DNA of 32,000 bases from Candidatus Jordarchaeales archaeon (GCA_038889235.1 JAWAHN010000002.1:104356-136355), one strand, 5' to 3'. Positions 5,638-30,082 are shown, counted from the stretch's first letter. Translations and numbers: made by a program. Notes: generated by a model not told the origin, from the letters alone.

Positions 5638-5727
5638 TGGCGGCCCCGAGGGGACTTGAACCCCTGAATTCCCGGCTTAGGAGGCCGGTGCCCTCTCAGG
5701 AACACATCCTGGCTAGGCCACGGGGCC
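5638..5727 (-). tRNA. tRNA-Arg(CCT) with genomic CCA and an 11-nt intron at 20a/21
   Basis: Acceptor GGCCCCG/CGGGGCC, anticodon stem CCGGC/GCCGG around CT-CCT-AA, T arm AGGGG-TTCAAGT-CCCCT. Removing 5695..5705 gives a normal D arm GCCTAGCCAGGATAGGGC. Confidence 0.95.
5695..5705 (-). other. 11-nt tRNA intron (bulge-helix-loop type)
   Basis: Intron GTGTTCCTGAG. Helix CAGG/CCTG; cuts AT|G and AG|A fall 2 nt 3' of each helix strand. Confidence 0.85.
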
Positions 5728-5766
5728 AACCAGCAGCCACACCAATAATACCTAAACAACTACTAG

Positions 5767-5811
5767 TTTTTTAATCCTTTCCCTTCCATAAACACCAGAA
5801 AAGTTTAAGTA
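5767..5811. promoter_or_regulatory. Divergent BRE/TATA promoters for tRNA-Arg (-) and tRNA-Gly (+)
   Basis: GAAAAGTTTAAGTA at 5798..5811, about 30 nt upstream of tRNA-Gly; TTAAAAAA on the minus strand at 5767..5774. Confidence 0.55.
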
Positions 5812-5840
5812 CAATCTCCACAATTACCCAAGACTTGGGC

Positions 5841-5936
5841 GCGGGCGTAGTCCAGCCTGGTCTAAGACGGCGGCCTGCCACGCCGCGGACCCGGGTGGTT
5901 AACAAAAACCAGGGATTTCAAATCCCGGCGCCCGCA
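5841..5936 (+). tRNA. tRNA-Gly(GCC) with a 21-nt intron at 53/54
   Basis: Acceptor GCGGGCG/CGCCCGC, anticodon stem GCGGC/GCCGC around CT-GCC-AC. Removing 5896..5916 restores the T arm CCGGG-TTCAAAT-CCCGG. Confidence 0.95.
5896..5916 (+). other. 21-nt tRNA intron (relaxed BHB)
   Basis: h GA/TC, H CCCG/AGGG (one G.A mismatch), bulges GG|T and AT|T, h' GGTT/AACC. Confidence 0.85.
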
Positions 5937-5976
5937 TTAAAATCCACAAAGAAGAAATAAAATAGTGGAATTAGTG

Positions 5977-6813
5977 CTATATTTTCGTTTCCAACCATTC
6001 ATCTATGTCTTTAAGGACCTTCTCTTTTTCTAGTTCATTAAGTATTTCGTGGTACAATCCCTTGTAGATTTTCATCGTGAAGTCTTTGTGTTTCACTTTC
6101 TCTGCTAGTTCCATGCTTCCTTTGGGGTTGACTAGCTTGTCTTCTCCTGCTACTAATAATAGTGTTGGAACTTTGAGTTTGTCGGCATTTTCAAGTATTG
6201 TTTTCATGGCTTTGATGAATTCAACCGCAAATTTGACCGTGATCGTCTTGAATATTAACGGGTCGTTGGCGTATGCTTCGCAGACTTTCTTGTCGTGGGA
6301 TAGAGTGTATGGATCTATTTGGCTCGGTATCTCCTGCTTGGGGTTTGTCTTTGCAAGTTCTTCGAGCATCTTCATCGTTCCAGCGTCTACGTCGCTCGCA
6401 AGTCTCAGCGCAGGAGAGGAGAGAACTAGACAGTCGATTTTTTCCGGGTTTTTGAGCGCGTACAGCAATGCTATTGTTCCGCCCATACTGTGGCCTAAGA
6501 GGATAAGCTTCTTTTCCTTTTCTTTTTTCTTCACCATATCGATGAACGTGTCGAGGTCTTCCACGTAGTCGTCGAAGTTGTCCACGTGTCCTCTGGCTCC
6601 CTCGGAGCGGCCGTGCCCCCTGTGGTCCAATGCGTAAAATGCTATACCTTTGCTGGCAAAGTGTTCTGCCACATGCTTATACCTTCCCGAGTACTCGGCC
6701 AAACCGTGGGCTGCAACCATTACTGCCCTAACTTTTTCAGGTCTCCAAAACTGGTAGTATATTTTCAATCCTTCTTTTCCCTTAAACTCTCCCTCCTCAT
6801 GAGCAATTTTCAC
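5977..6813 (-). CDS. Alpha/beta hydrolase (lysophospholipase / monoglyceride lipase family)
   Basis: HGLAEYSGRY, DHRGHGRS, nucleophile GHSMGG, catalytic Asp (AGEDKLV) and His (GLYHEIL). Confidence 0.92.
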   Translation of the reverse strand: MKIAHEEGEFKGKEGLKIYYQFWRPEKVRAVMVAAHGLAEYSGRYKHVAEHFASKGIAFYALDHRGHGRSEGARGHVDNFDDYVEDLDTFIDMVKKKEKEKKLILLGHSMGGTIALLYALKNPEKIDCLVLSSPALRLASDVDAGTMKMLEELAKTNPKQEIPSQIDPYTLSHDKKVCEAYANDPLIFKTITVKFAVEFIKAMKTILENADKLKVPTLLLVAGEDKLVNPKGSMELAEKVKHKDFTMKIYKGLYHEILNELEKEKVLKDIDEWLETKI

Positions 6814-6972
6814 TTGCCTATCCCCCCACCTTTTCTGCTTAAGTGTTGGCGCTCTCCATTTGCTTTCTTTTTACTATAATTTAACTTTTATGTAGAATTT
6901 CATGTACCAGCAGCATTGAACGGTTAACGCTTGCACTGTTTGTCCAGGTTAATCAGTGCTCAGAGGAGGAAA

Positions 6973-6983
6973 GAAATATATAA
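6973..6983 (+). promoter_or_regulatory. TATA box of tRNA-Trp
   Basis: Purine-rich run then AAATATATAA, about 30 nt upstream of G1 (7010). Confidence 0.6.
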
Positions 6984-7028
6984 CTTGACGGCGAATTTCT
7001 TCTCTCGATGGGGGCGTAGCGCAGCTAG

Positions 7029-7043
7029 AACGTTTGTGGCGAA
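7029..7043 (+). other. 15-nt D-loop intron (18/19) of tRNA-Trp
   Basis: H AGCT/GGCG (one A.G mismatch), bulges AG|A and AA|G, h' AC/GT. Removal restores the invariant G18-G19. Confidence 0.8.
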
Positions 7044-7062
7044 GTAGCGCGGCTGGCTCCAG

Positions 7063-7141
7063 AAGCAATGAGAACAAACTGGTGCGCTGATTGGGGATGA
7101 TGACCTTCTGGAGCTTCGAGCCGGAGAGGAATCCCGGAAGC
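7063..7141 (+). ncRNA. Canonical 37/38 intron of tRNA-Trp encoding a box C/D guide RNA (predicted Cm34 and Cm39)
   Basis: C box ATGAGAA 7068..7074, D' CTGA 7087..7090, C' ATGATGA 7097..7103, D TCGA 7116..7119. Guides are complementary to GCACCAGTT and GCTCCAGAAG; the N+5 rule lands on C39 and C34. Confidence 0.85.
7127..7139 (+). other. 13-nt intron nested within the 37/38 intron
   Basis: h G-C, H CCGG/CCGG (perfect), bulges AG|A and AA|G, h' G-C closing GAAT. Its removal creates GGAG-GC|A, the missing 3' half of the 37/38 BHB. Confidence 0.75.
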
Positions 7142-7160
7142 ACCAGTTGGTCGTGGGTTC

Positions 7161-7178
7161 ACCCTCTCCGGGGCCTTC
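7161..7178 (+). other. 18-nt T-loop intron (56/57) of tRNA-Trp
   Basis: H GGGT/GCCT (two G-U), bulges TC|A and TC|A, h' CCC/GGG. Of the registers checked (53/54 to 56/57), only 56/57 gives a BHB. Confidence 0.8.
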
Positions 7179-7453
7179 AAGTCCCACCGCCCCCATCATT
7201 CTCTGCTTCCCCCAGGATTTTTCGGCTGCTTTATCTGTCTGGTGTGTAATCCTAAGTTTTGCTTTCAACTTTCGAATGCCCTCTCGACTTGCCACTCGTC
7301 TCTGAGACCACTTGCGGGCTACCCCTTCATTTAAAAAAGATCTGTGGTGGGCGGAAGAACGAGCTGTTCGGCTTCTAGGTGGGTTCGTGGAAAAAATTTT
7401 TATTCTGTTTGTTGGGAGTTCTTCAAGTTGGTGCCCGAAAAGGAGGGTTTGTC

Positions 7454-8047
7454 GTGCGCCTTTGGTTGCTTGACATCCTTGCTTGTCCGGCTGATGGTTG
7501 CAAGTATTACCCGTTGAAACTATCGATATTTGAGTGGGACGACAATGACGCTGGACGAATACTTGAGGTGAGTGAAGCGTACGCTAAAGGCAACGCTGAA
7601 AAGGCGAGGCAGGAGTTGAAGGATAGCGTCAAGGTTGATAGGGTGAAGGGCCTTGTGGAAGACGAGCTTGTTAGGTCTCCGATGGAGGTAAAAGACTACG
7701 CTCTGGCTTTTAAAGAGAAGGTTAACAGCGTGTTTAGCAACGTTGTAATCGACGAAACGGGGGCTAGCACTAAGCTTATAAAGTCAATACTCAGTTTCGA
7801 GCCCCCCTCCGTCCTCAACGAGTCATTTGAAAACACGATATATGTCGCCAACTGGCTGGCCTTCAAAGTCAATGTAAAAAGTGGCATCTTGGTCTGCGAA
7901 AAGTGCGGCCGCTTCTACCCCATAATAGATACGATACCTCACATGCTACCCGACGATCTGAGAGACAAAAAAGAGGATAAAGAGTTCCTTTTGAAGTGGC
8001 AGAAGTTCATCCCAAAGAAGATACTTGAGGCAGAGGGCATCAAGTAG
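7454..8047 (+). CDS. trm112: Trm112-like methyltransferase activator with a long internal insertion
   Basis: N-terminal LLDILACP and C-terminal GILVCEKCGRFYPIIDTIPHMLP are the two halves of the Trm112 Zn knuckle. GTG start at 7454 after GGAGGG. Confidence 0.75.
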   Translation: MRLWLLDILACPADGCKYYPLKLSIFEWDDNDAGRILEVSEAYAKGNAEKARQELKDSVKVDRVKGLVEDELVRSPMEVKDYALAFKEKVNSVFSNVVIDETGASTKLIKSILSFEPPSVLNESFENTIYVANWLAFKVNVKSGILVCEKCGRFYPIIDTIPHMLPDDLRDKKEDKEFLLKWQKFIPKKILEAEGIK

Positions 8048-8056
8048 CCCGGCGCG

Positions 8057-9217
8057 CTAGAATAGTGGGGCATACTTCGAAATAGTCTCCTTAAGTTTTT
8101 TAATGGTCTCTCTCACGACAGCAAATATTCTATCTTTTTCGTAGGTTAGCGGTGGCTTTTCCTGGTCATACATGGTCTCTGGGTCCCTAGGGACATCGCC
8201 AAGTTCAAGTGCGATTTTAGTGTAGAGCTCCCTCCACGACGGAGGCGTATGTTCCGGCGGTTTAACCCCCAGTAACTTACAGACCATCAGGGTCCACGCT
8301 TTTGCCGTGCATCCTATATCGTATCCTCCCCCACCGAGGAGTATTAGTTTACCGCCTGTAGCCTCGTGTGCTAGCTTATGAAGTATCTCCATTATTTTCT
8401 CGTAGCAGTCCAGTGTGAGCGCCTCCGTGGTTAACGGATCCCTGAAGTGCGTATCGACACCGCATTGTTGTATTATTATGTCGGGCTCATAGGACTTCAC
8501 TAGCGACGGAACCACTTCGTTGTATGCATAAAGGTATGCCTCGCTGAACGTTAGGGGAGGGAGTGGAACGTTCACGCAGTAACCTTTCCCCTCTCCCTCT
8601 CCAACTTCGTCTATGAACCCTGTTCCAGGATAGAGGAATCGCCCGTCCTCGTGGAAGGAGACCGTCAAAACGCTCGGGTCATCGTAGAACACTTCTTGGG
8701 TTCCATCTCCATGGTGACAGTCTATGTCGACGATCATTATTTTCTTCAAACCATACTTCTTCTGAAGGTATCTCGCAGTTATGGCGACATCATTGAAAAC
8801 GCAGAAGCCAGCGCCTCTATCTCTGGCGGCGTGGTGCATTCCCCCTCCTGGGTTAAACGTGTGAACCGCCTTTCCTTCAACGACTAACTCTGCAGCCTTC
8901 AAAGAGCCACCGACGAGAATTGCCGACGCACTGAACATTCCCTTGAATGCTGGCGTGTCACCATAGTCTAAGTACCCCACGCCTATCTCATCAAGCTTCT
9001 TAACGCGTTGTAAGTATGCCTCACTGTGAACCAGTTTAAGCTCCTCCTCGCTCGCCATCCTAGCCTCGGCAATGTAGAGGTCAGGGTGACTGAGTAGACC
9101 TATTCCCTTCATGAGCTCCATCATGAGAACCAGCCTTTGAGGGCGCAACGGGTGCTCGGGGCCGAAGAAGTACTTAAGATAATCATCTGAATAAACTAAA
9201 GCTACTTTTCCACCCAA
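8057..9217 (-). CDS. Zn-dependent histone deacetylase family protein (AcuC/class I-like)
   Basis: HPLRPQR, GGGMHHA, GFCVFND, DIDCHHGDGTQ, GGGGY motifs. Confidence 0.95.
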   Translation of the reverse strand: MGGKVALVYSDDYLKYFFGPEHPLRPQRLVLMMELMKGIGLLSHPDLYIAEARMASEEELKLVHSEAYLQRVKKLDEIGVGYLDYGDTPAFKGMFSASAILVGGSLKAAELVVEGKAVHTFNPGGGMHHAARDRGAGFCVFNDVAITARYLQKKYGLKKIMIVDIDCHHGDGTQEVFYDDPSVLTVSFHEDGRFLYPGTGFIDEVGEGEGKGYCVNVPLPPLTFSEAYLYAYNEVVPSLVKSYEPDIIIQQCGVDTHFRDPLTTEALTLDCYEKIMEILHKLAHEATGGKLILLGGGGYDIGCTAKAWTLMVCKLLGVKPPEHTPPSWRELYTKIALELGDVPRDPETMYDQEKPPLTYEKDRIFAVVRETIKKLKETISKYAPLF

Positions 9218-9320
9218 AGCACGAAACCTCCTTCAAACTAGTGTAGAATTACTTATCCACATAGATGAAGAGTCGAGGTGACTTGGGAGTTTGTTTCTCG
9301 AAATAAAAGAAAGGGAAATG

Positions 9321-9755
9321 CTAGTGGATGACGAGCACGTCCCTCTCGCTCCAGCGTATCACTTTCTGCGTAGTGCTTCCGAGTACCACGCGCTTAACTC
9401 CTGTCAACCCTCTCGTTCCAATTACTATGAGGTCAACGTTCTCGTTATTCGCCTCTTCAACTATTTTCTCCGCCGGGTCTCCGTAGGTTATCTTCTTCAC
9501 CACGTCTTCTATACCTTTCTTCTTAGTCAACTTCTCGGCTTCTTCTAGTATTTTCGAAGCCGCTTGTTCTAAGTAAGATTTAACAAGTCCATAAGATGCC
9601 TCAGAGTATTGCTTTACCACTTCTAGTTCTTCTGTTTTAACAACATTTAACAAAATTATCTGAGAATTATACGTCTTGGCGAGACTTATTGCCCTCTCCA
9701 AAGCTCTCTCGGCGTGCTCTGAACCGTCTACAGGAACAAGTATTTTCTTATACAA
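9321..9755 (-). CDS. Universal stress protein (UspA family)
   Basis: YKKILVPVDGSEHA and IVIGTRGLTGVKRVVLGSTTQKV. TTG start at 9755 after GGTGA SD. Confidence 0.92.
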   Translation of the reverse strand: MYKKILVPVDGSEHAERALERAISLAKTYNSQIILLNVVKTEELEVVKQYSEASYGLVKSYLEQAASKILEEAEKLTKKKGIEDVVKKITYGDPAEKIVEEANNENVDLIVIGTRGLTGVKRVVLGSTTQKVIRWSERDVLVIH

Positions 9756-9820
9756 CTGATCACCCAAAAAGAGTTCTCCCGGCATTCCTTTTAAAATTCT
9801 TCTCCACAACGCTTCGCTCA

Positions 9821-10093
9821 TCAGCCGCCGTGCACGACCCCTAGAATCGTTATAACGTCCCCGTCCCGTACCTCGGTATCCAGTCCCTTAAGTACCCTCA
9901 CATCTCTCTCGTTTAAAAGAATAAGCATTCCGGGGGCCACCCTTCCCCCATCGACAACTCTTTTGAAAGCTTCTCTGTTAAGAGCTGCTGAAAGCACGTC
10001 TCTGACACTCGCCCCCTCACCGACTCTAACGTTTAACTCTTTAGTCCCAATGATTCTCGCTAACACTAAAGGTAACCGGACCTTAACCTCCAT
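9821..10093 (-). CDS. MoaD/ThiS/SAMP ubiquitin-like protein
   Basis: About 90 aa beta-grasp pattern, ILLNERDV...LDTEVRDGDVI and C-terminal di-glycine (VVHGG). Confidence 0.88.
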   Translation of the reverse strand: MEVKVRLPLVLARIIGTKELNVRVGEGASVRDVLSAALNREAFKRVVDGGRVAPGMLILLNERDVRVLKGLDTEVRDGDVITILGVVHGG

Positions 10094-10206
10094 ATAAGAC
10101 ACCAGTACTAAACGCAACTAGTCTTGTAAAACTTAGTCAGGGGAGATGCATTTCCTCACAGCCTAAGCGGCTCGGAGTAGGTCAATCTCCTCATCCTCAA
10201 ACTTGT

Positions 10207-10785
10207 TTAACACCACAAACCTATAAATATAGCGTTCACCGTCTATCCACAGTTTGAGCATTTAAGAATGCTTCCAACTCGGAGCCTTCTCTGTCCGCAT
10301 TTATGGTATATTGCGGACGTGTTCTTCTCGCTTACTTTCATGACTTCTGCGCCATACCACTTGCCTTACACGCTATGAACTAGCTTAGCTTTAAGGATGT
10401 GGGAATCTGTTGTTACGCTTTCCTCTAAAGGCCCTACTTTCACCGTTTCGCCTTACACCTTTAAGGTCTCCGAGAAATGTCATTAAATCGTTTGCTAATA
10501 CCTCGTCAACCATTCTTCTGCTTATCCTGTGGGGGATATCGATAACTACTCTTCTCTACTTGCTTCCAACATTCTTTGTAGCTTTGTATGTTTTTTTAGG
10601 GGGGCCGAGGTTCTCCTAAAGCCAGAAGTGTCTCTTAACTTCTCTCAGTTCTCCTCCACAGAATTCCGGCTCTGGGACTGCCGGAACTGACTGTTGCAGC
10701 TATTCAGCTTACTCCTATTTTATTGCTAGAACTGTTTTTTTCTCGTCGACCTCTTTTCCCACAGCTGTATATAGGCGAACCACTC
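10207..10785 (-). pseudogene. tnpB: Degenerate IS200/IS605-family tnpB remnant
   Basis: Hand translation across frames gives EWFAYI / VGKEVDEKKTVLAI / IGVS*IAATVSSG / PEFCGGELREVKRHFW / IPHRISRRMVDEVLAND...FLGDLKGVRRNG / FIACKA / WYGAEVMKVSEKNTSAIYHKCG...LKCSNCG*TVNA. This is the RuvC-I, RuvC-II, Zn-finger, RuvC-III order, with several stops and frameshifts. Confidence 0.8.
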
Positions 10786-10832
10786 ATCAAGGCAAATCCA
10801 TAACATTACATTCTATATTAAAAACAGTTTTC

Positions 10833-12003
10833 CTATCCAAATATCGTCCTAATAGTCCTCGACACCACTAGCGGCATCGCCTCAACTATAATTCTCCTGC
10901 ACCCCTTACGGCCGACGAGTAAGTCTGAAATAAGTCGCTGTATTTTTCCCGATGAAGCGTCCACCACTCTCCTTCCGCTACCTTTCCTTTTCAAAAAGAA
11001 GTTTCTAAGCCAAAGGCTCCACTTCAACTCTCCTCCAACCTCTCTCATGAGCCGCTTTCTGTACCAATGCAATGTTTCACAGCCTTTCTCATAAACTCTA
11101 AGCACACCTTCAGCACCTACAACTGCTGATAGCATCGCAAAGTACATTCCCTCACCGGTTATAGCCGAAACAGCGCCCGCAGCGTCCCCCACAGCCACCC
11201 ACCTCCTCCCGCAAACGTTTTCTATAATACCTGAAAGAGGAACCAATGCTGTCTCAAACTTCCACTCGCCCACCCTTAACCTTGGGCGCCACTAGAGGGT
11301 GCCCCCAAACGAAGTTGTCCAGGTATTTCTTAAGCGAACCCCTAACCTCTGAAAGCAGAGATCCAACTCCAACCACGAGCGAACCCCTTCTAGGAAAAAT
11401 CCAGGCATACCCGAAAGGCGCGACCCCGCCACCATAATAAAAGTAGTTTCTACACCCGAAATCTTCCTCTACACGTTTCTCCCCAACCTCTACAATGTAC
11501 TGGAAGCACAACCCTAACTGGTCTCTCCTCCAATTCCACCCGGAAATAGTTCGCGAGAGCGAGAGGACTCCGTCGGCAAACACTATCCACTCGCACTCGT
11601 AATCGTTGCTCCCACGGCATACTACACTTTCCTCTCTAAAGGAAACCTCTTTCACTCTCTCCCCGCAAAAAACTCTCCCCCCTTCTCCCTCGACTCTTTC
11701 AGCTAAGTGAAGTCCAAGTCTAGTCCTGTCAACGTTTACCCCTACTCTCTCATTGTAGTCAACCATGAACTGTCTTTCCCCAACGGAAACAGCGACACCA
11801 TACAACTCTCTTTCAAACACTTCTGAGCTTATCTTGAACTTTCTCACGGCTCTCTCGGTGAGCATTCCTCCACACGGCTTCCCTTTGTTTGGCGTCTCCT
11901 TCTTGTCAACCACAATAACCCTCAAACCTGATCTAGCCAACTCTTCACCGCAAACTAGCCCGGCGGGCCCCCCTCCTACGACGACCACATCGCACCTCAA
12001 CAC
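10833..12003 (-). pseudogene. Geranylgeranyl reductase-family flavoprotein split by a frameshift near 11262
   Basis: ORF 11254..12003 carries GGGPAG, PCGG and YAWIFP; ORF 10833..11273 carries VGDAAG and TGEGMYFAMLSA. The halves join as KVKGGRV/KFETALVP with a 1-nt register change. Confidence 0.75.
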
Positions 12004-12015
12004 GCTTAACCCCCT

Positions 12016-12759: not shown

Positions 12760-12801
12760 GAGTATCTTCCCCCCAGAAGACGTACGAGGAGAAGTGTATG
12801 G

Positions 12802-13656: not shown

Positions 13657-13766
13657 CAGGGAACACCTCTCTCAGAGAAGGAGCTAAAATTCCTAATTAG
13701 AATTTCGCCGTTTAGACACAAAACTAATAACGGTTATCTTCCCCTCTATTCGGGGATGGGACCATT

Positions 13767-19550: not shown

Positions 19551-19877
19551 ATGGCTAAATCAAAGGAAAAAGGTTCTTCGACGGAAAATATGGTTTTTGT
19601 AGGTAAAAAACCGACAAAGTGAGGCGGAAGCCGCCCACGTCGAATGAGTTATGTTTTGGCGTGTGTAATGCAGTTTAGTCAAGGAGCCAATGAGGTGAGA
19701 GTCGTAGCGCGTGGAAGAGCGATTTCAAAGGCAGTCGACGTCGTGGAAATAGTGAGGCAGCGCTTCATGCCAGACTCCGTGAAACTAGGAGAAATTAAAA
19801 TCGGAACAGAAACTATTGGCTCAGGCGAAGACCAACGCAACGTGTCCACAATAGAGATACAGCTCGTCAGAGTGTAA
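19551..19877 (+). CDS. albA: DNA/RNA-binding protein Alba, interrupted by a 27-nt BHB intron; join(19551..19617,19645..19877), 99 aa
   Basis: Spliced product reads [17 protein letters not shown]...[17 protein letters not shown], a contiguous Alba signature. GGGAGG SD before ATG 19551. Confidence 0.93.
19618..19644 (+). other. 27-nt mRNA intron with a BHB motif in alba
   Basis: h C-G, H CGAC/GTCG (perfect), bulges AA|A and AA|T, h' GTG/CAC extended by GGCGG/CCGCC. Contains an in-frame TGA. Confidence 0.9.
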
Positions 19878-19899
19878 AAACTTCAGGAGGCTACGGTTC

Positions 19900-20103: not shown

Positions 20104-20106
20104 TCT

Positions 20107-20688: not shown

Positions 20689-20730
20689 AACAATGCACCT
20701 GGAAGTGATGAGTTTAACAGCTGACTGCAG

Positions 20731-21111: not shown

Positions 21112-21169
21112 TTAGAAGAACTCCTCCACACATTCTGGCAGCGAAATTAGAAGAAAGAGAAAAAAGAAG

Positions 21170-22939
21170 CTACTTTTTGAGTGTTTCCGCTAGCTTCTCG
21201 AACGGAACGACCTCAACTTTCCATCCAGTGCTCTTCTCAATGGCATTCTTGATGGGAGCCGCCTCCTCCGGAACTATGAGTTTCCTGTGCTTAACTTTCT
21301 TGTCCACATCCTCTCTTTGAATAAACTCTTTCACGATTTCCCCTGTGAGCTTCCCTTCTTTCACCGCTTCGCTGACCGATAATCCGTCAACGTTGATTAC
21401 GAGGATCCACGCATCAATCCGCGCGTCTAGTAACGGTACTTTCACCCTGTAGAAGTCTTTTATGTTATTGGTTACGAGCACAACTGGGGAATTTTCGTTC
21501 GGGTCTCCGACGTATCTAAGACCGTCACGCGGCCTGTACTTGGTTTTCAGGAAGTCTGGAATAGCACTCGAGTCTTTCGGCCCAACGTAGACGTCCCATC
21601 CGCTTGCGTCCTCCAGTTCACCGGCAAATCTTGCTGCGAGTCCAGGTATTATGACTGCCCTATGTCTCACTTTCTCTGCTACCTTATACTCGTTGAGTGC
21701 ATCAGCCATTTTAGCAGCGTTCAACTGTCCTCCAGCCGCAGACGCCTCTACGCCTATACCTCCAGTATCTATTATCACAAGCCAGGCGTCTATCTTGGCT
21801 TGCTCTAGGTCTGACCTAACAACGGAAGCCGTAGATGCATAGTTTGTTGTTATCATTACCGGGCTGTCCTCGTTAGGGTTACCTATCGCGAAAAGTCCAG
21901 GCTCAACAGCTGGGTGTATCCTCGGGTCGGTGTAAATGTTCTGTCTCAGTGTTGCTAGAGCAAGGAAGCTCCACAGTTCCTTGGAGTTTATTATGAGGAG
22001 GTCAGCGTATCTGCAGATAAGGGCCGCTGCTAGGAAGGTCTCCATGAAAGCGGTTTCCAACTTTTCTGCTTCAGTCGCCGCCTCTTTTCCTATCCATAGG
22101 GTCGCTGGAACACCTACCAGCGGCCAGCCAACCGACTTATCTCCCCTCTCTATTGCAGCCCTTCTAAGCATCGTGAAGCTATCTATGGTGTCCGCTAAAA
22201 CTCCTGCACCCCACGCCGTTCCTGGGTCTAACGCCACCTGTATTCCAGCACTCGAGAGTGTAACCGCAAGGGACTTAAGCGTGTCAAGATCCCCGGGAGC
22301 AGCTACGACAACCGGGCACCCTGCTTCGAGTGCTATCTCAGCTACTTCCTTCCAGTTATCTCTCGTCGCAGCGTATAGCAGTGGCTTCCTGTTTTTCACA
22401 ACCTCGACGCCCGCCTTAAGACAAGCTGGATCAAGTGAGCAAAGTATCAGCGGGTAATTCGTATTGTCCGCTACAATCTTCACTGCTCTAGCGAACGTTG
22501 CTGGGTCTCTCGAGACAGACTTGATTGCTATCGCGTCGAGGCGCAGCTCAGCGCCCACTCTGAAAACCGACCAATTGCTTATCAGCTTAACGTTCTTGAT
22601 AAGCTCCTCCTCAGTCATTTCGTCATGTACGCAAACAGCTATAGCCGTTGGATTGAAGTATGTCAGCTCATGCCTGTACATCACTTCTTCTCCGCCTATA
22701 ACCACCTCGTTCCCGTCACCACCGAACTTCACGGGCCTAACTGGCGGTGTAACTAGCTCTTTGAGCTCTTCAAACGCCTTTTTGAACTTTGGATCCGTTG
22801 CCAACGGTTTGCAATTTTCAACCTCTAGCTCGTGCTCGATCAATTTGTAAGCGAAGGCCATGCAGCTATCTAAACCGCACTCACCGCAGTTCGTCTTGGG
22901 AAGGTAATTGTATATGTCTAGCGGTTTTAACCGAGCCAT
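21170..22939 (-). CDS. cdhE: Acetyl-CoA decarbonylase/synthase gamma subunit (CFeSP large subunit) with a duplicated C-terminal domain
   Basis: LPKTNCGECG...CMAFA [4Fe-4S] motif, TIM-barrel core, RQNIYTDPR, then two copies of the GxPNExSPV domain. Confidence 0.95.
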   Translation of the reverse strand: MARLKPLDIYNYLPKTNCGECGLDSCMAFAYKLIEHELEVENCKPLATDPKFKKAFEELKELVTPPVRPVKFGGDGNEVVIGGEEVMYRHELTYFNPTAIAVCVHDEMTEEELIKNVKLISNWSVFRVGAELRLDAIAIKSVSRDPATFARAVKIVADNTNYPLILCSLDPACLKAGVEVVKNRKPLLYAATRDNWKEVAEIALEAGCPVVVAAPGDLDTLKSLAVTLSSAGIQVALDPGTAWGAGVLADTIDSFTMLRRAAIERGDKSVGWPLVGVPATLWIGKEAATEAEKLETAFMETFLAAALICRYADLLIINSKELWSFLALATLRQNIYTDPRIHPAVEPGLFAIGNPNEDSPVMITTNYASTASVVRSDLEQAKIDAWLVIIDTGGIGVEASAAGGQLNAAKMADALNEYKVAEKVRHRAVIIPGLAARFAGELEDASGWDVYVGPKDSSAIPDFLKTKYRPRDGLRYVGDPNENSPVVLVTNNIKDFYRVKVPLLDARIDAWILVINVDGLSVSEAVKEGKLTGEIVKEFIQREDVDKKVKHRKLIVPEEAAPIKNAIEKSTGWKVEVVPFEKLAETLKK

Positions 22940-22954
22940 AATGACTCACCTTTT

Positions 22955-24151
22955 CTAAACTCTAGCAGTAACCCAGTTGAGAAGTGGGGGCACCTCCTCT
23001 TTCTTAGAGGACGTGAGGTACTCCACGAACGTCTTGAATATTTGTGCACTCGCTGGGTGAATCATCATGAAGACATCACACCCTACTAGTGACAGTGCTA
23101 GCGCCGTTATAGCCTCCCATATAGGCCCTCTGAACCTCTGGAGACCCCACTCGTCTCCCTTTTTCTTGTCACTCATGTAAGCCTCTCTCGCACCCCAAGC
23201 GTTGGTCGTTCCGGACGAAAGCGGCATCTGTAAGTCTGCATCCCCCTTGAGAGCTGAGAGCCTTATTCTTTCGTACACGCTGAACGAGTACTCCAACCCG
23301 TAGCCTAAAGCAGCCGTGGTTGCGTCCTGCACAATCCTATTTTTAGGCATGCCTGCATCCATTATGAGCTTGTTAAGCTTCTTTTGGTTGTTCACGTCCA
23401 GCTGTGTCCAAGATAGAACGTTGTGCCCATACTTCTTAGCCGCGTCAACTATCCTCTTCCAGTCAAGGTTAAGTGACGCTGAGTTGAGCATCAGTCTTTC
23501 TCCCTCGGAAACCGCAGCAGCAGCCTCGAGAACTTCAGGGTCCTTGTCTGGGTTCCCCGACCCACCTATAAGTATTGGTGTATCGACTGCTTGCAGAACA
23601 TCCTCTACGACTTTGGCCGCCTCTCTAGCAGGCGTGTTCTTAACATATGGGTCTGTGCTTATCAGATGCACTGTTACCAAGTCTGCGCCGAACTCGTTAA
23701 TCGCCTTCTTAGCCCAGTCTGCTGGATCCTCCATAACGTCTCCAAAGTGCTCCACTACAGGCTTCGGAAGGCTTATCGGCATGTCGAAAACGTCGAAAGC
23801 CACGACGGGCCTGTTAGGATTGTTGAACTCAAACCTATAGAAAGCAGGGGCTTTCTCGCCACCGATCTTAATGACCTTCTTACGCGTGCCTCCCTCAGCT
23901 CTAGTAGCTCCAAACTGGACCTCAACTATTTCCCCTGGGTACGACTCAATTGGACGCTCGAATTTTTGCTCGATGAGGGCTGCAGGTATTCTCGCCCTAG
24001 CTGCAGGAGGGAGCGCAGCAGCGAACATTCCTGGTATAACCTTGAGAACCAATTCTTCTGCTTCTATGACGACATCTTCAAGTTCCAGCTCCTCATATTT
24101 TCCAAGAATTTCCAGTATCTTCTTGCCTAGTGCTAATTCGTCTTTAGACAT
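22955..24151 (-). CDS. cdhD: Acetyl-CoA decarbonylase/synthase delta subunit (CFeSP small subunit)
   Basis: VAFDVFDMP, GGSGNPDKDPEVLE, DATTAALGYGLEYS, WGAREA, MIHP. Confidence 0.96.
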   Translation of the reverse strand: MSKDELALGKKILEILGKYEELELEDVVIEAEELVLKVIPGMFAAALPPAARARIPAALIEQKFERPIESYPGEIVEVQFGATRAEGGTRKKVIKIGGEKAPAFYRFEFNNPNRPVVAFDVFDMPISLPKPVVEHFGDVMEDPADWAKKAINEFGADLVTVHLISTDPYVKNTPAREAAKVVEDVLQAVDTPILIGGSGNPDKDPEVLEAAAAVSEGERLMLNSASLNLDWKRIVDAAKKYGHNVLSWTQLDVNNQKKLNKLIMDAGMPKNRIVQDATTAALGYGLEYSFSVYERIRLSALKGDADLQMPLSSGTTNAWGAREAYMSDKKKGDEWGLQRFRGPIWEAITALALSLVGCDVFMMIHPASAQIFKTFVEYLTSSKKEEVPPLLNWVTARV

Positions 24152-25566
24152 CAGTCTCCCCTGCTCTTATCGCTTCTCCTAATGATGAGCTTGTCCACTT
24201 TGATCTTCACGTTCTTGAAGATTAACTGCACTCCACCTCCGATGGCAGGCACACCTTCGACTGGAACAACGATCTCCGGCACGACGGCCCCGGTTGTCGC
24301 GGCTTCAGCCGCAGCCTCAGCTTTAGCTGCAGCCTCGACAGCCTTCCACCTCTCAACCACTGGGTGCCCTTTAGCCTTAAGGAACTCCTTAAGTTCCGCA
24401 GTGTTAGATACATCTTTCTCGGTTGCAATTTTGTCTCTAAGATGCTCAGGTATCGCGTCAAGAACTCTTTCCTTGACGTAAGACGGCAGCCATACAACTC
24501 TGTTCCAACCACCTTCAGCCTGCAGGAACTTCGGGCTCCTCATATACTCTATAGCGATGCCGAGGAAGCCCTCAACCTGCTTGCCACCACCAGTCTGGTT
24601 GGCCATTGTTGAGAACGGCAGACCGTTGACTGCAACACCTTGATAATTCCTGTCAACGATACCTATGCCGTCAACCTCTGGGATATAGAACGCTATAGCT
24701 TCAAAGCACCCACAGCTCGTGTGCGGATGCCCAAACATGCTATAGAGGAAAACCCTCTGAATTTCACCAAGAGACCTCTCCTTGGCAGCGGCATTTACCC
24801 CACTGTACTCTCCTACCACTGGGTCAAGCAGCTCACCCTTCTCAACCTTGAAGTTTGGACCCTTCGGGTCAACTCTAGCAGCTGCTCTAGCATCAAACCA
24901 GTTAATGGAACCACAAAGTGACACCCTGTTAGGAGTGATAATACACACGTGCGTCGGTGCGAAGCTCTGGCATAACACGCACCCATAAAACTCCTCCACG
25001 TCCTCATCCTTTAATCCTCTAGCCCTAGCATCTCTCGCCTCGTAGATCTTTAGGGCCTGCTCGTACATCTCCTCAACTTTCTTCGGGTCCGTAATATACG
25101 TCACCTGTATCTTCTCAATGAACGGGAACTCGGCCTTATAGAGCCTTGCCAAAACGCCACCGATCTGCTTGAAGCTATTCAATCCTTTCTTAAAGGAGGA
25201 CTGAGATATGCGGATCCAGATGTCATACCTCTGGTTAAGGTGCATGACCCCCTCAATATAGTTTGTAAACTCGTGTATACGCCTCTCAAGTACCCCTTCA
25301 AGGTCTTTTTCCAATTGCGCCCCTGCAACCTCAACAAGTATGCCAAGCGGGTATGAACCACCTTGTTCCAAGTCCTTTATATCCGGCCCAATTACACTGA
25401 CCCTGCCGTCCTCTATTTCGTTGAGACCTCTCACTTGTACCAGTTCGAACTTGTGTTTGACCTTCGGACCGCCGAACTCTACCTGCATATCTTTGCTGCG
25501 GATTCTCTCTCCTTCGTAGACCGGACCAACATCCACGGGGCATATATCCTTAAACGAGGACGCCAT
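24151..25566 (-). CDS. cdhC: Acetyl-CoA synthase beta subunit
   Basis: EGERIR, A-cluster ligands CVLCQSFAP and SCGCFE, GGGKQVEGF; Ala-rich C-terminal linker. Confidence 0.96.
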   Translation of the reverse strand: MASSFKDICPVDVGPVYEGERIRSKDMQVEFGGPKVKHKFELVQVRGLNEIEDGRVSVIGPDIKDLEQGGSYPLGILVEVAGAQLEKDLEGVLERRIHEFTNYIEGVMHLNQRYDIWIRISQSSFKKGLNSFKQIGGVLARLYKAEFPFIEKIQVTYITDPKKVEEMYEQALKIYEARDARARGLKDEDVEEFYGCVLCQSFAPTHVCIITPNRVSLCGSINWFDARAAARVDPKGPNFKVEKGELLDPVVGEYSGVNAAAKERSLGEIQRVFLYSMFGHPHTSCGCFEAIAFYIPEVDGIGIVDRNYQGVAVNGLPFSTMANQTGGGKQVEGFLGIAIEYMRSPKFLQAEGGWNRVVWLPSYVKERVLDAIPEHLRDKIATEKDVSNTAELKEFLKAKGHPVVERWKAVEAAAKAEAAAEAATTGAVVPEIVVPVEGVPAIGGGVQLIFKNVKIKVDKLIIRRSDKSRGD

Positions 25567-25764
25567 GGGCACCACTCCTCTCCAAATTAAGTCCTCTGTC
25601 GTCGAGAAACATTTAAGTTGTCCACTTTTAACTTTTTTTGTTAACTTTTATAACTGGTAGAGGCAACGCTCGGCTCAGGGTGGCTGATGGTTTCTCACGT
25701 ACCTTTCTTATCCGTCGAAAAGCTTTTTGTTGAAAGGTAACGCTTTTCTGATAGGTGTCTTAGG

Positions 25765-26685
25765 TTGTACGACTTAACTGTCATAGGGCATTTAACGATC
25801 GATTTCATATCCCGCTTTGGTGTTAGATTGCGTAAGTCAGTGGGTGGCCCGCCTTTCTACTGTAGTCTCACTGCACGCGCGCTGGGCGCCAAAGTTGCTG
25901 TCGTTTCTAAAACTGCAGTAGGAGAAGACTTGCGTGAATTTTCATCATTGCTGGGTAACGCTGGAATTTCTACTTTCATATTGAGTGGAAAAGCTACGAC
26001 GACGTTTGAAATAGATTACAGGGGAGAAAAGCGCAATCTGAGACTTATATCCCGCGCGGAAAACATTTCGATAAATGAAGTTCCAAGCGAGTCATTAAAG
26101 GCATCAGTGGTGTTGCTCAGCCCCGTGGCTGGAGAGCTAAGTCTAGATTTTGTTAAGGCTCTCCCACGTTACCGTGAAAGTGGTTGTCACTTAATCGCCG
26201 GCGACCTTCAGGGTTTTACGAGAATATTTCACAAGGACGGCAAAATGTCTTTTAGGCGGCTTGAGGAAGATTTCTTCAGTCTCTTCGACATCATTAAGGG
26301 GTCCGAAAGAGAAGTTAAAGCGGTGACCGGTTGTCGCTCAGTTGAAGAAGCCCTAAAACAGATAACATACTTTGGCCCCAAGATAGCCATAGCAACTCTA
26401 GGCGAAAAAGGCGCTCTCGCTCTTTCTGAAGGCTTGCTCTTCCGAGTTCACCCATTGAGACCTGAAAGCGTTGTCGATACGACTGGAGCCGGGGACGCAT
26501 TCATCGCAGCCTTCCTTGTAGGATATGCATGGTCAATGAGCCTAGAAGACTGCTTAAAACTAGCCTGCTCCGCTGCTACGTGTACCGTGGAGAGGAAGCT
26601 TCCTCTTGGCGGTGCAAACAAGGAGTATATCGTGGAGAAAAGCAAGAACGTGCGCATTGAAAAAATATCGCGATTTGAATCATAA
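25765..26685 (+). CDS. PfkB family carbohydrate kinase
   Basis: GHLTID, GGPPFY, TLGEKGA, DTTGAGDAF. Confidence 0.92.
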   Translation: MYDLTVIGHLTIDFISRFGVRLRKSVGGPPFYCSLTARALGAKVAVVSKTAVGEDLREFSSLLGNAGISTFILSGKATTTFEIDYRGEKRNLRLISRAENISINEVPSESLKASVVLLSPVAGELSLDFVKALPRYRESGCHLIAGDLQGFTRIFHKDGKMSFRRLEEDFFSLFDIIKGSEREVKAVTGCRSVEEALKQITYFGPKIAIATLGEKGALALSEGLLFRVHPLRPESVVDTTGAGDAFIAAFLVGYAWSMSLEDCLKLACSAATCTVERKLPLGGANKEYIVEKSKNVRIEKISRFES

Positions 26686-26806
26686 CACGTCTCTCAATAG
26701 TAGTTCCTCTCAAAACGCCACCATACATCTTTAAAAACTACTAAATAAGGTCGATAAAGTTAGTCTAGTTTAGTTTGAGTTTCATTTATTGTTGGAGGTG
26801 TTTGTC

Positions 26807-27097
26807 GTGATTTGCGTGGAAGAATTCTATGTAGAGGGAGTGCCTGTGATAGGTTTGAAGGTTAATTTGAATCCGCCCTTTCTGATGATTGTTTGCCAGC
26901 GGGGTGTTCTCGCGTGTGGCTATTTTAACATAGAAGTCGCTGAAAAGTTTGGTGTGTCCGCTGCAATAGTCAAGGGTGTTTCATCGTTCGAGGAAATGTT
27001 GAGGGCAAACGTAGTAAGTGTTACATCTAAAGCCAAGGAGCTTGGGGTAACTGAAAACTGCAGTGGAAAGGACGCGGTTCTCCTTTTCTCATTGTAA
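26807..27097 (+). CDS. YunC / DUF1805 family protein
   Basis: GVLACGYFNIEVAEK, AAIVKGVSSFEEML, AKELGV. GGAGGTG SD 6 nt before the GTG. Confidence 0.85.
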   Translation: MICVEEFYVEGVPVIGLKVNLNPPFLMIVCQRGVLACGYFNIEVAEKFGVSAAIVKGVSSFEEMLRANVVSVTSKAKELGVTENCSGKDAVLLFSL

Positions 27098-27209
27098 CCA
27101 TGAAGCTCCTCCTCTGCAACCAGGAAAAAGTACTTAAAAACTATCTTTCTGTTTCTTGGTAGAGTTTGACGGTTAATTCAGTTTATGTGTTTCAGAGAGG
27201 TGCTGCTTT

Positions 27210-28661
27210 TTGGCGAAAGGCGAGGAAACACCACTCCCAAACAAGTACGAGAAATTCAGTGAGTGGTATAACGAGATATTGCAAAGGGCTGAACTAATAG
27301 ACTTACGTTACGGTGTTAAAGGTTTCATTGTTTACAGGCCGAATGCTGCAATGATAATGAGGCAAATTTACCGTTTTTTCGAAGAAGAACTTGACAAGCT
27401 TGGACATGCCCCCTGCGTTTTCCCTGTTGTTATTCCTTTGGAGTACTTCGAGAAAGAGGCTCAGCACATTAAGGGCTTTCTTGACGAAGTGTTCTGGGTC
27501 ACAAAGGCTGGGCGACATGACCTCAACAAGCCACTATTGTTGCGTCCGACATCCGAAACTGCGATGTACCCTCTCTACGCTTTGTGGATTAGGAGCTACA
27601 AAGATCTTCCACTAAAACTATACCAGTCTAACTCTGTATACCGGTATGAAACGAAGGCAACCAAACCCCTTCTAAGAGGGCGAGAATTTTTCTGGATAGA
27701 GACACACTGCGCTCACAGAACCAAGGAGGACGCTGAGCTACAAGTGTTGGAAGATATGAAGGTCATGAGCAGAGCCCTTCATGAGGTCTTAGGGATTCCC
27801 TTCATGCTCTTCGAGCGACCACCATGGGACAGATTCGCCGGAGCCGACAAAACTTACGCTTTCGACGTCCTGCTCCCAGATAAATCCGTACTACAGGTGG
27901 CTACCACGCACATACTCGGAGAGAATTTTTCCAAGGCTTTCGAGATAACCTACAAAGACGAGGATGGAAGACTAAAATACGTCCAGCAAACGTGCTTCGG
28001 AATAGGAATTTCAAGAATACTGGCTACGCTAATAAGTGTTCATGGAGACGAATACGGGCTAATTCTTCCATTCGACGTCGCTCCAACACAAATAGTAATA
28101 GTTCCGATAGTTTTCAAAGAGAACAGGGAAGTCGTTCTGGATAAATGTAAATCTCTCTTCGCGAAGCTCAGAAGCAAAGGATACCGGGTTGTGCTCGATG
28201 ATTCCGAAGAACGCCCGGGAGCTAAATTCTACAAATGGGAGCTTCTAGGAGTCCCCATAAGGATAGAGATCGGTCCAAAAGACATTGAAAAAGGTGTTGT
28301 AACGCTTTTCAGGCGCGATACTAGGGAAAGGATCGTCGTTGCAGAACAAGAGGTTGAAAACAAGATTGCGGAGCTAGGAAAGGAGATCTTGAATGTTTTG
28401 AGGGAACGGGGTGAAAAGTGGCTTAAAGAAAACTTGAAAGACATTAGAAGCAGGGAGGAACTCATGGAGCTAGCGAAGAACGGTGGAATAGGCCGGATGG
28501 CTTTCTGCGGAAGAGAAGAATGCGCTGCCGAAATAAAGATCACAACAGGCGGCTTCGAAGTTAGAGGGGTCATGGTAGGGGAAAAGTGGGGCGACTTAGG
28601 CGCCTGTGCCGCATGCGGCAAGGAAGCAAAACAAATAGTTTACGTTGCCAAGCCATACTAG
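27210..28661 (+). CDS. proS: Prolyl-tRNA synthetase (archaeal/eukaryotic type)
   Basis: RPTSET, YRYETK...LLRGREF, class II motif 3 GIGISR, C-terminal Zn domain ending AKPY. Confidence 0.97.
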   Translation: MAKGEETPLPNKYEKFSEWYNEILQRAELIDLRYGVKGFIVYRPNAAMIMRQIYRFFEEELDKLGHAPCVFPVVIPLEYFEKEAQHIKGFLDEVFWVTKAGRHDLNKPLLLRPTSETAMYPLYALWIRSYKDLPLKLYQSNSVYRYETKATKPLLRGREFFWIETHCAHRTKEDAELQVLEDMKVMSRALHEVLGIPFMLFERPPWDRFAGADKTYAFDVLLPDKSVLQVATTHILGENFSKAFEITYKDEDGRLKYVQQTCFGIGISRILATLISVHGDEYGLILPFDVAPTQIVIVPIVFKENREVVLDKCKSLFAKLRSKGYRVVLDDSEERPGAKFYKWELLGVPIRIEIGPKDIEKGVVTLFRRDTRERIVVAEQEVENKIAELGKEILNVLRERGEKWLKENLKDIRSREELMELAKNGGIGRMAFCGREECAAEIKITTGGFEVRGVMVGEKWGDLGACAACGKEAKQIVYVAKPY

Positions 28662-28739
28662 ACCCCCCTCCAAAGGTAGTTTTGCTTAGATTTTTATGTC
28701 TCTCTGCACTTCTCTATTCCTAAGATTGCTTAGGAGGGT

Positions 28740-30082
28740 GTGCGATTATTGCTTTTCTTTGCAGATCTTCACATTCACAGCAAATATAGTAGGGGTAGCA
28801 GCTCCAACATGGAGCCTCGCATTCTACGTTCTTTTGCTAAAGTAAAGGGCCTTAACCTATTAGGGACAGGCGACTTCTCCCACCCTAGATGGTTTGCCGA
28901 GTTGAGGGAGAAGCTTGAGGAAGTAGATGAAACGGGCTTCCACACGTTGAAGGAAGGTGAAAAAGACGTTTTCTTTCTGCTTTCGAACGAGGTGAACACT
29001 AGTTTTGAGTTTGAAAATGAGGCTAAAAACATTCACCACGTCATATTAGTCGAAAACTTCGACGTTGCCGAACAAGTGAACGAGGTCTTATCGAAGTACG
29101 GGAACCTTGAAGTCGACGGAAGGCCTTCCCTTAAGTGTTCCCCCGCAGAACTCGTCGAGTCACTCATCCAAGTAGATAGGGACATACTAGTAGTTCCAGC
29201 CCACCTGTGGACGAGTTGGTTCGGGGCGCTAGGCGAACGCGGCTTCAACAGTTTGGAGGACTGCTACGGCGACATGGTAAGACACATATACGCCGTTGAA
29301 ACAGGCCTCAGCTCTGATCCTCCAATGAACTGGAGGCTTAGCGCCCTCGACAAGTATGTCCTGATGAGCAACAGTGACTCACACAGCCCATGGTCCTGGA
29401 GACTTGGGCGGGAAGCGAATGTTTTCGACCTTGATGAGCCTTCATTCCACGAAATTGTTGACGCCATAAGGAGTAGAAATAGGAAAAAGATTGTCATGAC
29501 TATCGAGGTCGCCCCTGAATACGGAATCCCCCTCCACTCCGGAGCGTGGACGTAAAATATCACTATGATGGGCATAGGGGCGACCGCCAGGGACATAACG
29601 GCGTAGATGTATGCATGCACCCAAAGGAAGCTATAAAACTTGGGAACATTTGCCCTGTTTGCGGGAGGAAAATGACCATAGGCGTACAGCACAGGGTTGA
29701 AGAGCTTGCTGACAGGGAGGAAGGTTTTGTCCCTAAAAACTTCATACCGTTCAAAAGATTAATCCCACTCGCCGAGTTGATAGCTGTCGCCTTAGGCACC
29801 GAGAACCTTCACACACAGAAAATTAGAGAGGAGTATGACCGTCTTGTGAACAAGTTTGGGAACGAGTACAAGGTTTTACTGGAGGCCTCGATGGAAGACC
29901 TCCTAAAGGTCACACATCCAAAGATAGCCGAACTCATAATACTCAACAGAGAAGGACGGCTGAAGATAAAGCCGGGATTCGATGGAGTTTACGGCAAAGT
30001 GGTATTAGAGGAGTCTCAAGAGGAAAAGGGTGTGGAACGCCGTGTAAAAGTCGGACAACAGAGTCTCGACAGTTACTTCTAA
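28740..30082 (+). CDS. Endonuclease Q-like PHP-domain protein, interrupted by a predicted 29-nt intron; join(28740..29526,29556..30082), 437 aa
   Basis: ADLHIHSKYS, GTGDFSHP, ETGLSSDP, NSDSHS, RLGRE in the first ORF; KYHYDGH, CPVCG, HRVEELADR, PGFDGVYG in the second. The join restores PEYGKYH. Confidence 0.85.
29527..29555 (+). other. Predicted 29-nt mRNA intron (relaxed BHB)
   Basis: h AT/AT, H ACGG/ACGT (one G.A mismatch), bulges AA|T and AA|A, h' CC/GG. Carries most of the TAA that ends ORF 28740..29555. Confidence 0.7.

Follow-up and report, generated by a model that had tools for sequence, protein, structure and literature searches.

Predicted bulge-helix-bulge introns in tRNA genes and in at least 13 protein-coding genes of a Jordarchaeales archaeon

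We analyzed a 32,000-nt stretch of DNA from a Candidatus Jordarchaeales archaeon (positions 104356-136355 of JAWAHN010000002.1, from assembly GCA_038889235.1). We refer to this whole stretch as the window and to the contig as C2, and coordinates below are those of the window unless a contig is given. All three of its tRNA genes and two of its ~33 protein-coding genes are interrupted by inserts that resemble archaeal bulge-helix-bulge (BHB) introns or the more relaxed bulge-helix-loop (BHL) type. An earlier note on this sequence had predicted eight excisions in the 32 kb, six of them in the tRNA genes and two in protein-coding genes. All eight are present in the sequence, with sizes that agree: 11 nt in tRNA-Arg; 21 nt in tRNA-Gly; 11, 13, 66, and 18 nt in tRNA-Trp; 27 nt in alba; and 29 nt in a gene of the TIGR00375 (EndoQ-like) family. 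Five of the tRNA introns are short (11-21 nt), as the note had said, and there is one long intron besides (66 nt). The purine-purine mismatches that it described in central helices are real as well: they are conserved, and they adjoin the 5' bulge.

A single register fits all eight of these introns and 11 further mRNA introns from elsewhere in the genome: two 3-nt bulges are separated by a 4-bp central helix, with a cut after the second base of each bulge. Several of the introns have a mismatched helix (G.A or G.G beside the 5' bulge; for GatE, A.C; for DnaG, an outer G.A). An inner helix is lacking in the short tRNA introns, and they are therefore of the BHL type. Compensatory substitutions are present across the relatives; we counted these by eye on alignments.

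The genome that contains the window, labelled G000, has 2.14 Mb in 8 contigs, with 47-51% G+C on the three large contigs. We compared it with 10 other genomes of the order, from families f1 (which includes G000) and f2 (six genomes). G002 and G003 are from the same genus as G000, G011 is a more distant relative, and G018 supplied an unsplit homolog of the EndoQ-like protein. The best named match of the prolyl-tRNA synthetase (ProRS) in the window, at 82% identity, is from a Candidatus Jordarchaeales metagenome-assembled genome from a hot spring. Since this is the nearest named genome, the lineage is Asgard.

The two interrupted protein-coding genes in the window are arranged as follows (a caret marks a splice site here and below):

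19552-19617, + strand: exon 1 of alba (22 residues and the first base of the next codon)
19618-19644, + strand: 27-nt BHB intron in alba
19645-19877, + strand: exon 2 of alba (74-96% identity to alba from relatives in the order, 56-65% to more distant ones)
28740-29526, + strand: exon 1 of the TIGR00375 gene (EndoQ-like, PHP-domain family; positions 2-234 of the NCBIfam profile, residues 4-260 of the G018 homolog)
29527-29555, + strand: 29-nt BHB intron in the TIGR00375 gene (C2:133882-133910)
29556-30082, + strand: exon 2 of the TIGR00375 gene (positions 251-374 of the NCBIfam profile, G018 homolog from residue 261)

Without splicing, the reading frame of alba ends after GKKPTK. Excision of the insert, which contains an in-frame TGA, gives GKKPTMSYVL, which is colinear with Alba proteins. 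The central helix of this intron is CGAC/GTCG, the bulges are AA^A and AA^T, and the inner hairpin is GTGAGGCGG/CCGCCCAC. Inserts are found, with hairpins that differ, in all six f2 genomes as well as in G000, G001, and G004. The alba genes of G002 and G003 have no insert, and their sequence, ccgaca^atgagt, is exactly the junction that we predicted.

The EndoQ-like gene is split at 29546-29555, and repeated As make the registers 29525-29553 and 29526-29554 equivalent to the one listed above. There is a 16-position gap between the two halves in the NCBIfam profile. Each of the 10 other genomes of the order has 24-32 extra nt exactly between ..EYG and KYH.., and comparison with the unsplit 459-aa homolog from G018 places the break at residue 260/261 in nine of the 10, with inserts of 28-32 nt. 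At the same site, the insert of G003 is 24 nt long, keeps the frame, and contains a TAG stop codon. In family f2, the motif is perfect (ACGG, AAA, CTAACT...AGTTAG, CCGT, AAA, with helix ACGG/CCGT), and L007 and L011 have the compensatory helix ATGG/CCAT (TACGG/CCGTA has become TATGG/CCATA). Family f1 has ACGG/ACGT with a G.A mismatch, and its inner helix is wholly unlike that of f2. The window's intron is of this kind, with bulges AA^T and AA^A.

The earlier note had also proposed a genome-wide scan for frame-restoring BHB inserts. We aligned the 2,995 open frames of the complete 1.42-Mb genome of G011 to G000 and looked for homologs that continue in another frame or past a stop codon. Twelve of the junctions were clear BHB introns, with inserts of 28-59 nt. 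The first exon of alba was too short for the survey to pick up this gene, which brings the count to 13. With this single reference genome, only genes with a homolog in G011 and two sizeable exons are visible, so 13 genes is a lower bound. These intron-bearing mRNAs (at least 13) are ~1% of the comparable genes. The introns outside the window are:

C1:445963-445935: 29 nt, aEF-2
C1:549889-549831: 59 nt, NuoD-like
C1:615266-615296: 31 nt, GatE
C1:804345-804315: 31 nt, protein-isoaspartate methyltransferase
C1:806573-806601: 29 nt, aIF5B
C1:835887-835915: 29 nt, Cbf5
C1:836938-836966: 29 nt, eL42
C1:964013-964040: 28 nt, radical-SAM-like
C1:972112-972079: 34 nt, DnaG
C2:318687-318659: 29 nt, HacA/LeuC
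C2:145890-145918: 29 nt, LeuD

The gene for aEF-2 is single-copy in G000, and the 29-nt insert interrupts it within the codons for DTPGHV^DF. G000, G001, and G003 all have the insert, and its hairpin differs slightly among them. G002 and all of the more distant relatives are cleanly without it, and their junction reads GTAGAC... An essential gene that is split in three independent assemblies, together with a precise intron-less allele in a sister species, would be hard to explain by anything other than splicing.

We scanned both halves of 10 of the 11 genes outside the window (for LeuD, exon 2 only), and the halves matched a single NCBIfam profile, in stretches that abut or nearly do so. For instance, the two halves match positions 2-97 and 99-720 for aEF-2, 2-88 and 90-628 for GatE, 2-66 and 68-322 for Cbf5, 4-24 and 25-592 for aIF5B, and 1-26 and 28-279 for DnaG. 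Exon 1 of the radical-SAM-like gene had no family match, and exon 2 had just a weak one.

The mRNA inserts have a common anatomy: they are 27-34 nt long (with one of 59 nt), they have A-rich 3-nt bulges, and most have an inner hairpin of 5-10 bp. The inner helix is strong in nine of the 11 mRNA introns outside the window, with 5-10 contiguous bp in seven of them and, after refinement by hand, 9 bp in GatE and 10 bp in DnaG. It is weaker in LeuC, aEF-2, alba, and the EndoQ-like gene (2-3 contiguous bp where scored).

In six of the 13 genes, the intron lies inside a highly conserved protein motif (we recognized these motifs by eye). The sites are DTPGHV^DF in aEF-2, the P-loop GHIDHGK^TSL in aIF5B, GTL^DP in Cbf5, SAP^HM in the isoaspartate methyltransferase, the GYGSQP^KPV region in eL42, and GKKP in Alba.

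The tRNA genes in the window, and their introns, are:

5727-5638, - strand: tRNA-Arg(CCU), with an encoded CCA (ARAGORN gives a tRNA of undetermined type until 5705-5695 is removed, and then tRNA-Arg(cct))
5705-5695, - strand: 11-nt D-loop intron of tRNA-Arg (bulge-helix-loop on the 5' side; central helix CAGG/CCTG)
5841-5936, + strand: tRNA-Gly(GCC) (41.8 bits against the Rfam tRNA model; 27 nt in the T loop versus 6 in the model)
5896-5916, + strand: 21-nt T-arm intron of tRNA-Gly, after position 53 (excision gives a tRNA-Gly that ARAGORN accepts)
7010-7195, + strand: tRNA-Trp(CCA), 186 nt, with four introns (read from the sequence; kept in four relatives)
7031-7041, + strand: 11-nt D-loop intron of tRNA-Trp (central helix CTAG/GTGG, with a G.G mismatch)
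7063-7141, + strand: anticodon-loop intervening sequence of tRNA-Trp at 37/38 (79 nt in the genome)
7063-7126 and 7140-7141, + strand: outer canonical 37/38 intron of tRNA-Trp (66 nt)
7127-7139, + strand: 13-nt intron nested in the anticodon intron of tRNA-Trp (central helix CCGG/CCGG)
7161-7178, + strand: 18-nt T-loop intron of tRNA-Trp (central helix GGGT/GCCT; inner helix CCC/GGG)

ARAGORN and Rfam (in both gathering and E-value modes) recovered just one or two of the three tRNA genes in the window and missed tRNA-Trp. We located tRNA-Trp by a peak of G+C and then by reading the sequence. Once its four introns are excised, ARAGORN calls it as tRNA-Trp(cca). Running ARAGORN after each single BHB-like excision in the intergenic regions gave no further tRNA in the window. 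Across the whole genome, ARAGORN counts only 14 tRNA genes, which suggests that most of the tRNA genes are interrupted.

In an alignment of tRNA-Trp from five genomes, the helix and bulge positions are conserved, the loop lengths vary, and there are compensatory changes. For the D-loop intron, CTAGAAC and GTGG are conserved (G004 has CCAG), and the sequence and length of the part between them vary, as do the two intronic bulge bases. The T-loop intron is 17-20 nt long among the relatives; its exonic A is fixed, its intronic bulge bases are variable, and in G002 the inner helix has changed in a compensatory way, to TCTC/GGGA. The nested intron has the compensatory helix CTGG/CCAG in G003 and G002. 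The outer helix of the anticodon intron (CTCC/GGAG) and its 3' bulge (GC^A) are possible only once 7127-7139 has been removed, so splicing would have to be ordered. The nested reading is supported by G004, because GGAG-GC-A-CCAG is contiguous there.

The tRNA-Trp genes of two relatives have other inserts: an extra 16 nt in the variable region in G002 (L050), and in G004 (L051) a second intron of 34 nt after about position 42, which replaces the nested 13-nt intron. The positions of tRNA introns turn over between close relatives.

By inspection, the 37/38 intron contains box C/D-like elements (AATGAGA ... CTGA ... ATGATGA ... TCGA), and 7063-7126 is nearly invariant in five genomes. Putative guides within it pair with tRNA positions 32-38 and 38-44, with positions 34 and 39 at N+5 (again by inspection only). 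The D box is non-consensus: TCGA, CCGA, or CGGA.

The central helix in tRNA-Gly, CCCG/AGGG, has a G.A mismatch beside the 5' bulge, and the inner helix is GGTT/AACC, with compensatory GGCT/AGCC in G003 and G001. We chose the register 5896-5916 because it gives a TTCAAAT loop. A paralog, tRNA-Gly(CCC), has an intron of the same kind. In tRNA-Arg, the unspliced D loop is 21 nt, and an insert of 10-17 nt is kept at this site in both families of the order. The tRNA-Arg of G011 has no insert, and its D loop matches the mature D loop that we predict after excision.

We also scanned the genome without any reference, for BHB sites that join two coding-looking open stretches (using a hexamer coding filter), and compared the count to 40-nt block shuffles at the same coordinates; these shuffles keep mononucleotide content only. 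There were 193 loci with BHB sites that bridge open reading frames (ORFs), as compared to 133-138 in the shuffles. For lengths of 21-31 nt, there were 48 versus 19-23. Looser versions of the scan gave a similar modest excess. Roughly, the excess amounts to some 30-60 sites. BHB-bounded sites are thus enriched over shuffled controls, as the earlier note expected; because the enrichment is only moderate, scans of this type cannot list the introns singly.

The note had further suggested that many split genes in the genome may be intact spliced genes. Most of the split genes are indeed candidates for splicing, but a few have plain frameshifts instead. The geranylgeranyl-reductase-family gene (GGR; 12003-10833, - strand) was considered as a third mRNA intron in the window and rejected: it has a 2-nt deletion at ~11262. 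Its orthologs are intact in 10 relatives, which have two more residues where the window encodes GGRV-g-KFET. Either GGR is really a pseudogene or the assembly is wrong at this point. Since this is a plain frameshift, the split genes are not all spliced genes. Four more genes with G011 homologs, at C1:305261, C1:884114, C1:888778, and C3:260896, change frame by one extra nucleotide and have no insert, and these four frameshifts measure the rate of assembly errors or pseudogenes.

Two clusters of apparent frameshifts (C1:894.8-896.5 kb and C2:20.4-21.3 kb) were artefacts from spurious ORFs inside the 23S and 16S rRNA genes. We found no convincing BHB motif at the frame-shifting inserts C2:461132 (14 nt) and C2:361444 (16 nt), as compared to their G011 homologs, or at several low-scoring junctions; the 14-nt and 16-nt inserts may be BHL mini-introns or indels. 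Two exact-match scans of metagenome contigs for the spliced junctions of alba and aEF-2 found none; this result carries little weight, since strain variation, or libraries that were not made from RNA, would lead to the same outcome.

G000 encodes the proteins that would be expected to splice such introns. There are two matches to the catalytic domain of the splicing endonuclease EndA (PF01974), at C1:1056473-1056727 and C3:444309-444566. One paralog (196 aa) retains the catalytic Tyr, His, and Lys, and its best matches in PDB are catalytic subunits from Crenarchaeota (3p1z_B, 3ajv_B, and 2zyz_B). The other (195 aa) is without the catalytic His. The genome also encodes the ligase RtcB. The note had asked which EndA architecture is present: judging from these two separate genes, it is probably the broad-specificity (alpha-beta)2 type. 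Enzymes of this type accept relaxed motifs (PMC5829648).

The sequences themselves show the anatomy of the inserts, the products that excision restores, conservation and covariation, alleles that cleanly lack the intron, and the genes for the enzymes. From these, we consider it highly likely that the inserts are archaeal BHB or relaxed BHL introns that are spliced by EndA and RtcB, both in tRNAs and in at least 13 mRNAs. The mRNAs of this archaeon very probably need tRNA-style splicing. The earlier note's proposal that EndA-type splicing has been extended to mRNAs on a notable scale is supported by the predicted introns in at least 13 protein-coding genes.

We propose that splicing would proceed as follows. 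Four exon bases just upstream of the 5' splice site would base-pair with four others close to the insert's 3' end, which would give a helix between two 3-nt bulges (mostly starting with AA), and the hairpin internal to the intron would stack on this helix. The heteromeric (alpha-beta)2 EndA would then cut after the second base of each bulge, and RtcB would join the exons and probably circularize the intron. The pathway would act on tRNAs, with 1-4 introns in each tRNA gene of the window, one of them nested and removed in order. It would also act on at least 13 mRNAs, including those for the single-copy essential proteins aEF-2, aIF5B, GatE, eL42, Cbf5, and DnaG, as well as alba and the EndoQ-like gene. 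The introns would be gained and lost at the species level.

Several points weigh against splicing by EndA and RtcB. First, the relaxed BHB motif has ~400 hits per strand in the 32 kb, and the motif alone would not single out these sites. Around the GGR frameshift, 1,400 excisions would restore the frame, and scores that arise there by chance are equal to the true EndoQ-like intron's. The bare motif proves very little; the evidence is comparative, namely conserved position, compensatory changes, and precise presence or absence, as read from the sequences. Second, shuffled sequence gives a high background in the reference-free scan, and motif hits without the ORF condition are ~18% above shuffles, so that part of the ORF-bridging excess may be generic structure. 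Third, the outer helices of the mRNA introns are only 0-3 bp, and several of the central helices are mismatched. Fourth, there are about five plain frameshifts in the survey (GGR and ~4 others, of +/-1 or -2 nt), and the assembly is metagenome-style, in 8 contigs, with an estimated contamination of 3%. Finally, all of the support is from comparing DNA sequences, from which we infer that the RNA is cleaved and ligated, and when this happens relative to translation.

The inserts might be removed from RNA by something other than EndA and RtcB, such as another endonuclease that recognizes hairpins or an RNA-guided process. The weak outer helix and the sometimes mismatched central helix depart from the strict hBHBh' motif, and the enzymes of this lineage are known only from sequence. 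Against this, the rule of a 4-bp helix, two 3-nt bulges, and a cut after the second base gives the correct junction in every case that we tested. Also, this geometry is common to tRNA introns, whose removal by EndA is established, and (alpha-beta)2 enzymes tolerate relaxed motifs (PMC5829648). We view removal by other means as very unlikely.

If the inserts stayed in the RNA, ribosomes would have to bypass them, either by hopping over 27-34 nt or by programmed frameshifting, with the hairpin as the signal. Bypass would not need a conserved helix between the exon and the 3' end of the insert, or two 3-nt bulges, or compensatory changes, or the geometry of tRNA introns. The junctions of alba, the EndoQ-like gene, and aEF-2 had no matching pair of take-off and landing codons that we could see, and thirteen independent sites would be unprecedented. 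What speaks for bypass is that the inserts are short, lie within coding sequence, and have a stable hairpin. Also, transcription and translation are generally coupled in archaea, and this coupling makes splicing before translation awkward. Still, we think that bypass is very improbable.

It is hardly credible that the split genes are pseudogenes or artefacts of assembly or sequencing, with BHB-like folds that match by chance: the motif is permissive, this is a draft assembly, and plain frameshifts do exist in the genome (including GGR at ~11262), but the same insert is in the same codon in independent assemblies (10 for the EndoQ-like gene, 9 for alba, and 2 besides G000 for aEF-2), the flanking exons are under purifying selection (62-96% amino acid identity), the hosts include single-copy aEF-2 as well as aIF5B, GatE, and eL42, and the inserts cluster at 27-34 nt as compared to 1-2 nt for true frameshifts.

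If EndA and RtcB do splice these mRNAs, then gene callers will split or truncate such genes, and proteins such as aEF-2, aIF5B, and Alba will be reported as fragments or pseudogenes, which would affect the annotation of Asgard genes and estimates of genome completeness. Interrupted coding genes would then be tolerated in the group nearest to eukaryotes, which would depend on EndA and RtcB, and one would have to ask how, with no nucleus, the cell keeps unspliced mRNA from being translated. Sister species that differ in whether they have a particular intron would serve as natural experiments on the gain and loss of protein-spliced introns.

A stronger proposal, which seems to us evenly poised between true and false, is that tRNA-type splicing is obligatory for ~1-2% of the protein-coding genes of Jordarchaeales, including single-copy core genes of translation and replication, with turnover at the species level and with introns that often lie at the codons of the most conserved motifs. 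If so, this would be a prokaryote with a real load of mRNA introns, and ribosomes would have to be kept off unspliced transcripts, that is, by a delay or separation between transcription and translation.

Eukaryotes retain both EndA and RtcB. A bearing of these introns on the evolution of eukaryotic introns would be speculation (the earlier note had spoken of intron evolution), and the link to eukaryotic origins is indirect because the introns are of the protein-spliced tRNA type, not spliceosomal.

The other proteins encoded in the window include TIP49, a Urm1-like protein, ProRS, HypE, eS8, and a cluster for carbon monoxide dehydrogenase (CODH)/acetyl-CoA synthase. Three are eukaryote-like proteins, of a kind that has been reported from Asgard archaea:

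2791-4161: TIP49/RuvB-like ATPase
7379-8047: Trm112-like zinc ribbon, with its halves ~150 residues apart
9821-10117: Urm1/ThiS-like modifier

The CODH/acetyl-CoA synthase cluster (21170-25575, - strand) contains CdhC and two genes of the CdhD family, one of them with an Fe-S domain, and suggests a Wood-Ljungdahl-type pathway. The 716 bp between the Urm1-like gene and the GGR gene (10117-10833) contain no open frame of 80 or more codons' worth of amino acids on either strand and have no match to an RNA family.

To our knowledge, textbooks treat protein-coding introns as absent from archaea except for cbf5. We found no report of multiple BHB introns in the mRNAs of Asgard archaea in searches of full-text literature, and no description for multi-intron tRNAs of a nested, order-dependent pair like that of tRNA-Trp or of recurrent purine-purine mismatches beside the 5' bulge.

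In euryarchaea such as Haloferax and Pyrococcus, the intron of tRNA-Trp contains a box C/D guide RNA. By inspection, the tRNA-Trp intron in the window looks similar, with C, D', C', and D-like boxes and putative guides that could pair with the tRNA near positions 34 and 39. It differs in its degenerate D box, its extra nested intron of 13 nt, and its Asgard host.

Interrupted tRNAs are already known in this class. A preprint from October 2026 gives 2.0-2.4 intervening sequences per tRNA gene for Jordiarchaeaceae and Freyrarchaeaceae (bioRxiv 10.64898/2026.10.13.758758); in a term search, the words "mRNA," "cbf5," and "nested" were absent from its text. The window's tRNA genes, with six introns in three genes, resemble the multi-intron tRNAs of Thermoproteales, Jordiarchaeia, and Atabeyarchaeia in having sites in the D loop and T loop and several introns per gene, and in being missed by annotation tools. 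The predicted endonuclease, with its two genes of ~195 aa, one of them without the His, is like the (alpha-beta)2 EndA of Crenarchaeota and Nanoarchaeota (PDB 3p1z, 3ajv, 2zyz, and 3iey; PMC5829648).

A BHB intron in the cbf5 pre-mRNA of Crenarchaeota was reportedly described by Watanabe in 2002. It is also documented in Desulfurococcales and Sulfolobales (Yokobori 2009, PMC2738675), and as of 2020, cbf5 was the only BHB intron reported in archaeal coding sequence (PMC7714728). The same paper describes a BHB intron in the 5' untranslated region of the HVO_1309 mRNA of Haloferax volcanii. As with HVO_1309, we predict that mRNAs are substrates of the archaeal splicing endonuclease, but the introns here interrupt reading frames instead of an untranslated leader. 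The closest parallel is crenarchaeal cbf5, which has a tRNA-type BHB intron in its coding sequence, with lineage-specific gain and loss; cbf5 is split in G000 too (by 29 nt). The crenarchaeal intron is removed by the tRNA splicing machinery, and we predict the same here. In contrast to that single gene, at least 13 genes of unrelated functions are interrupted in this Asgard lineage, and the presence of their introns varies by species. The scale in mRNAs is a large extension of a known kind of intron.

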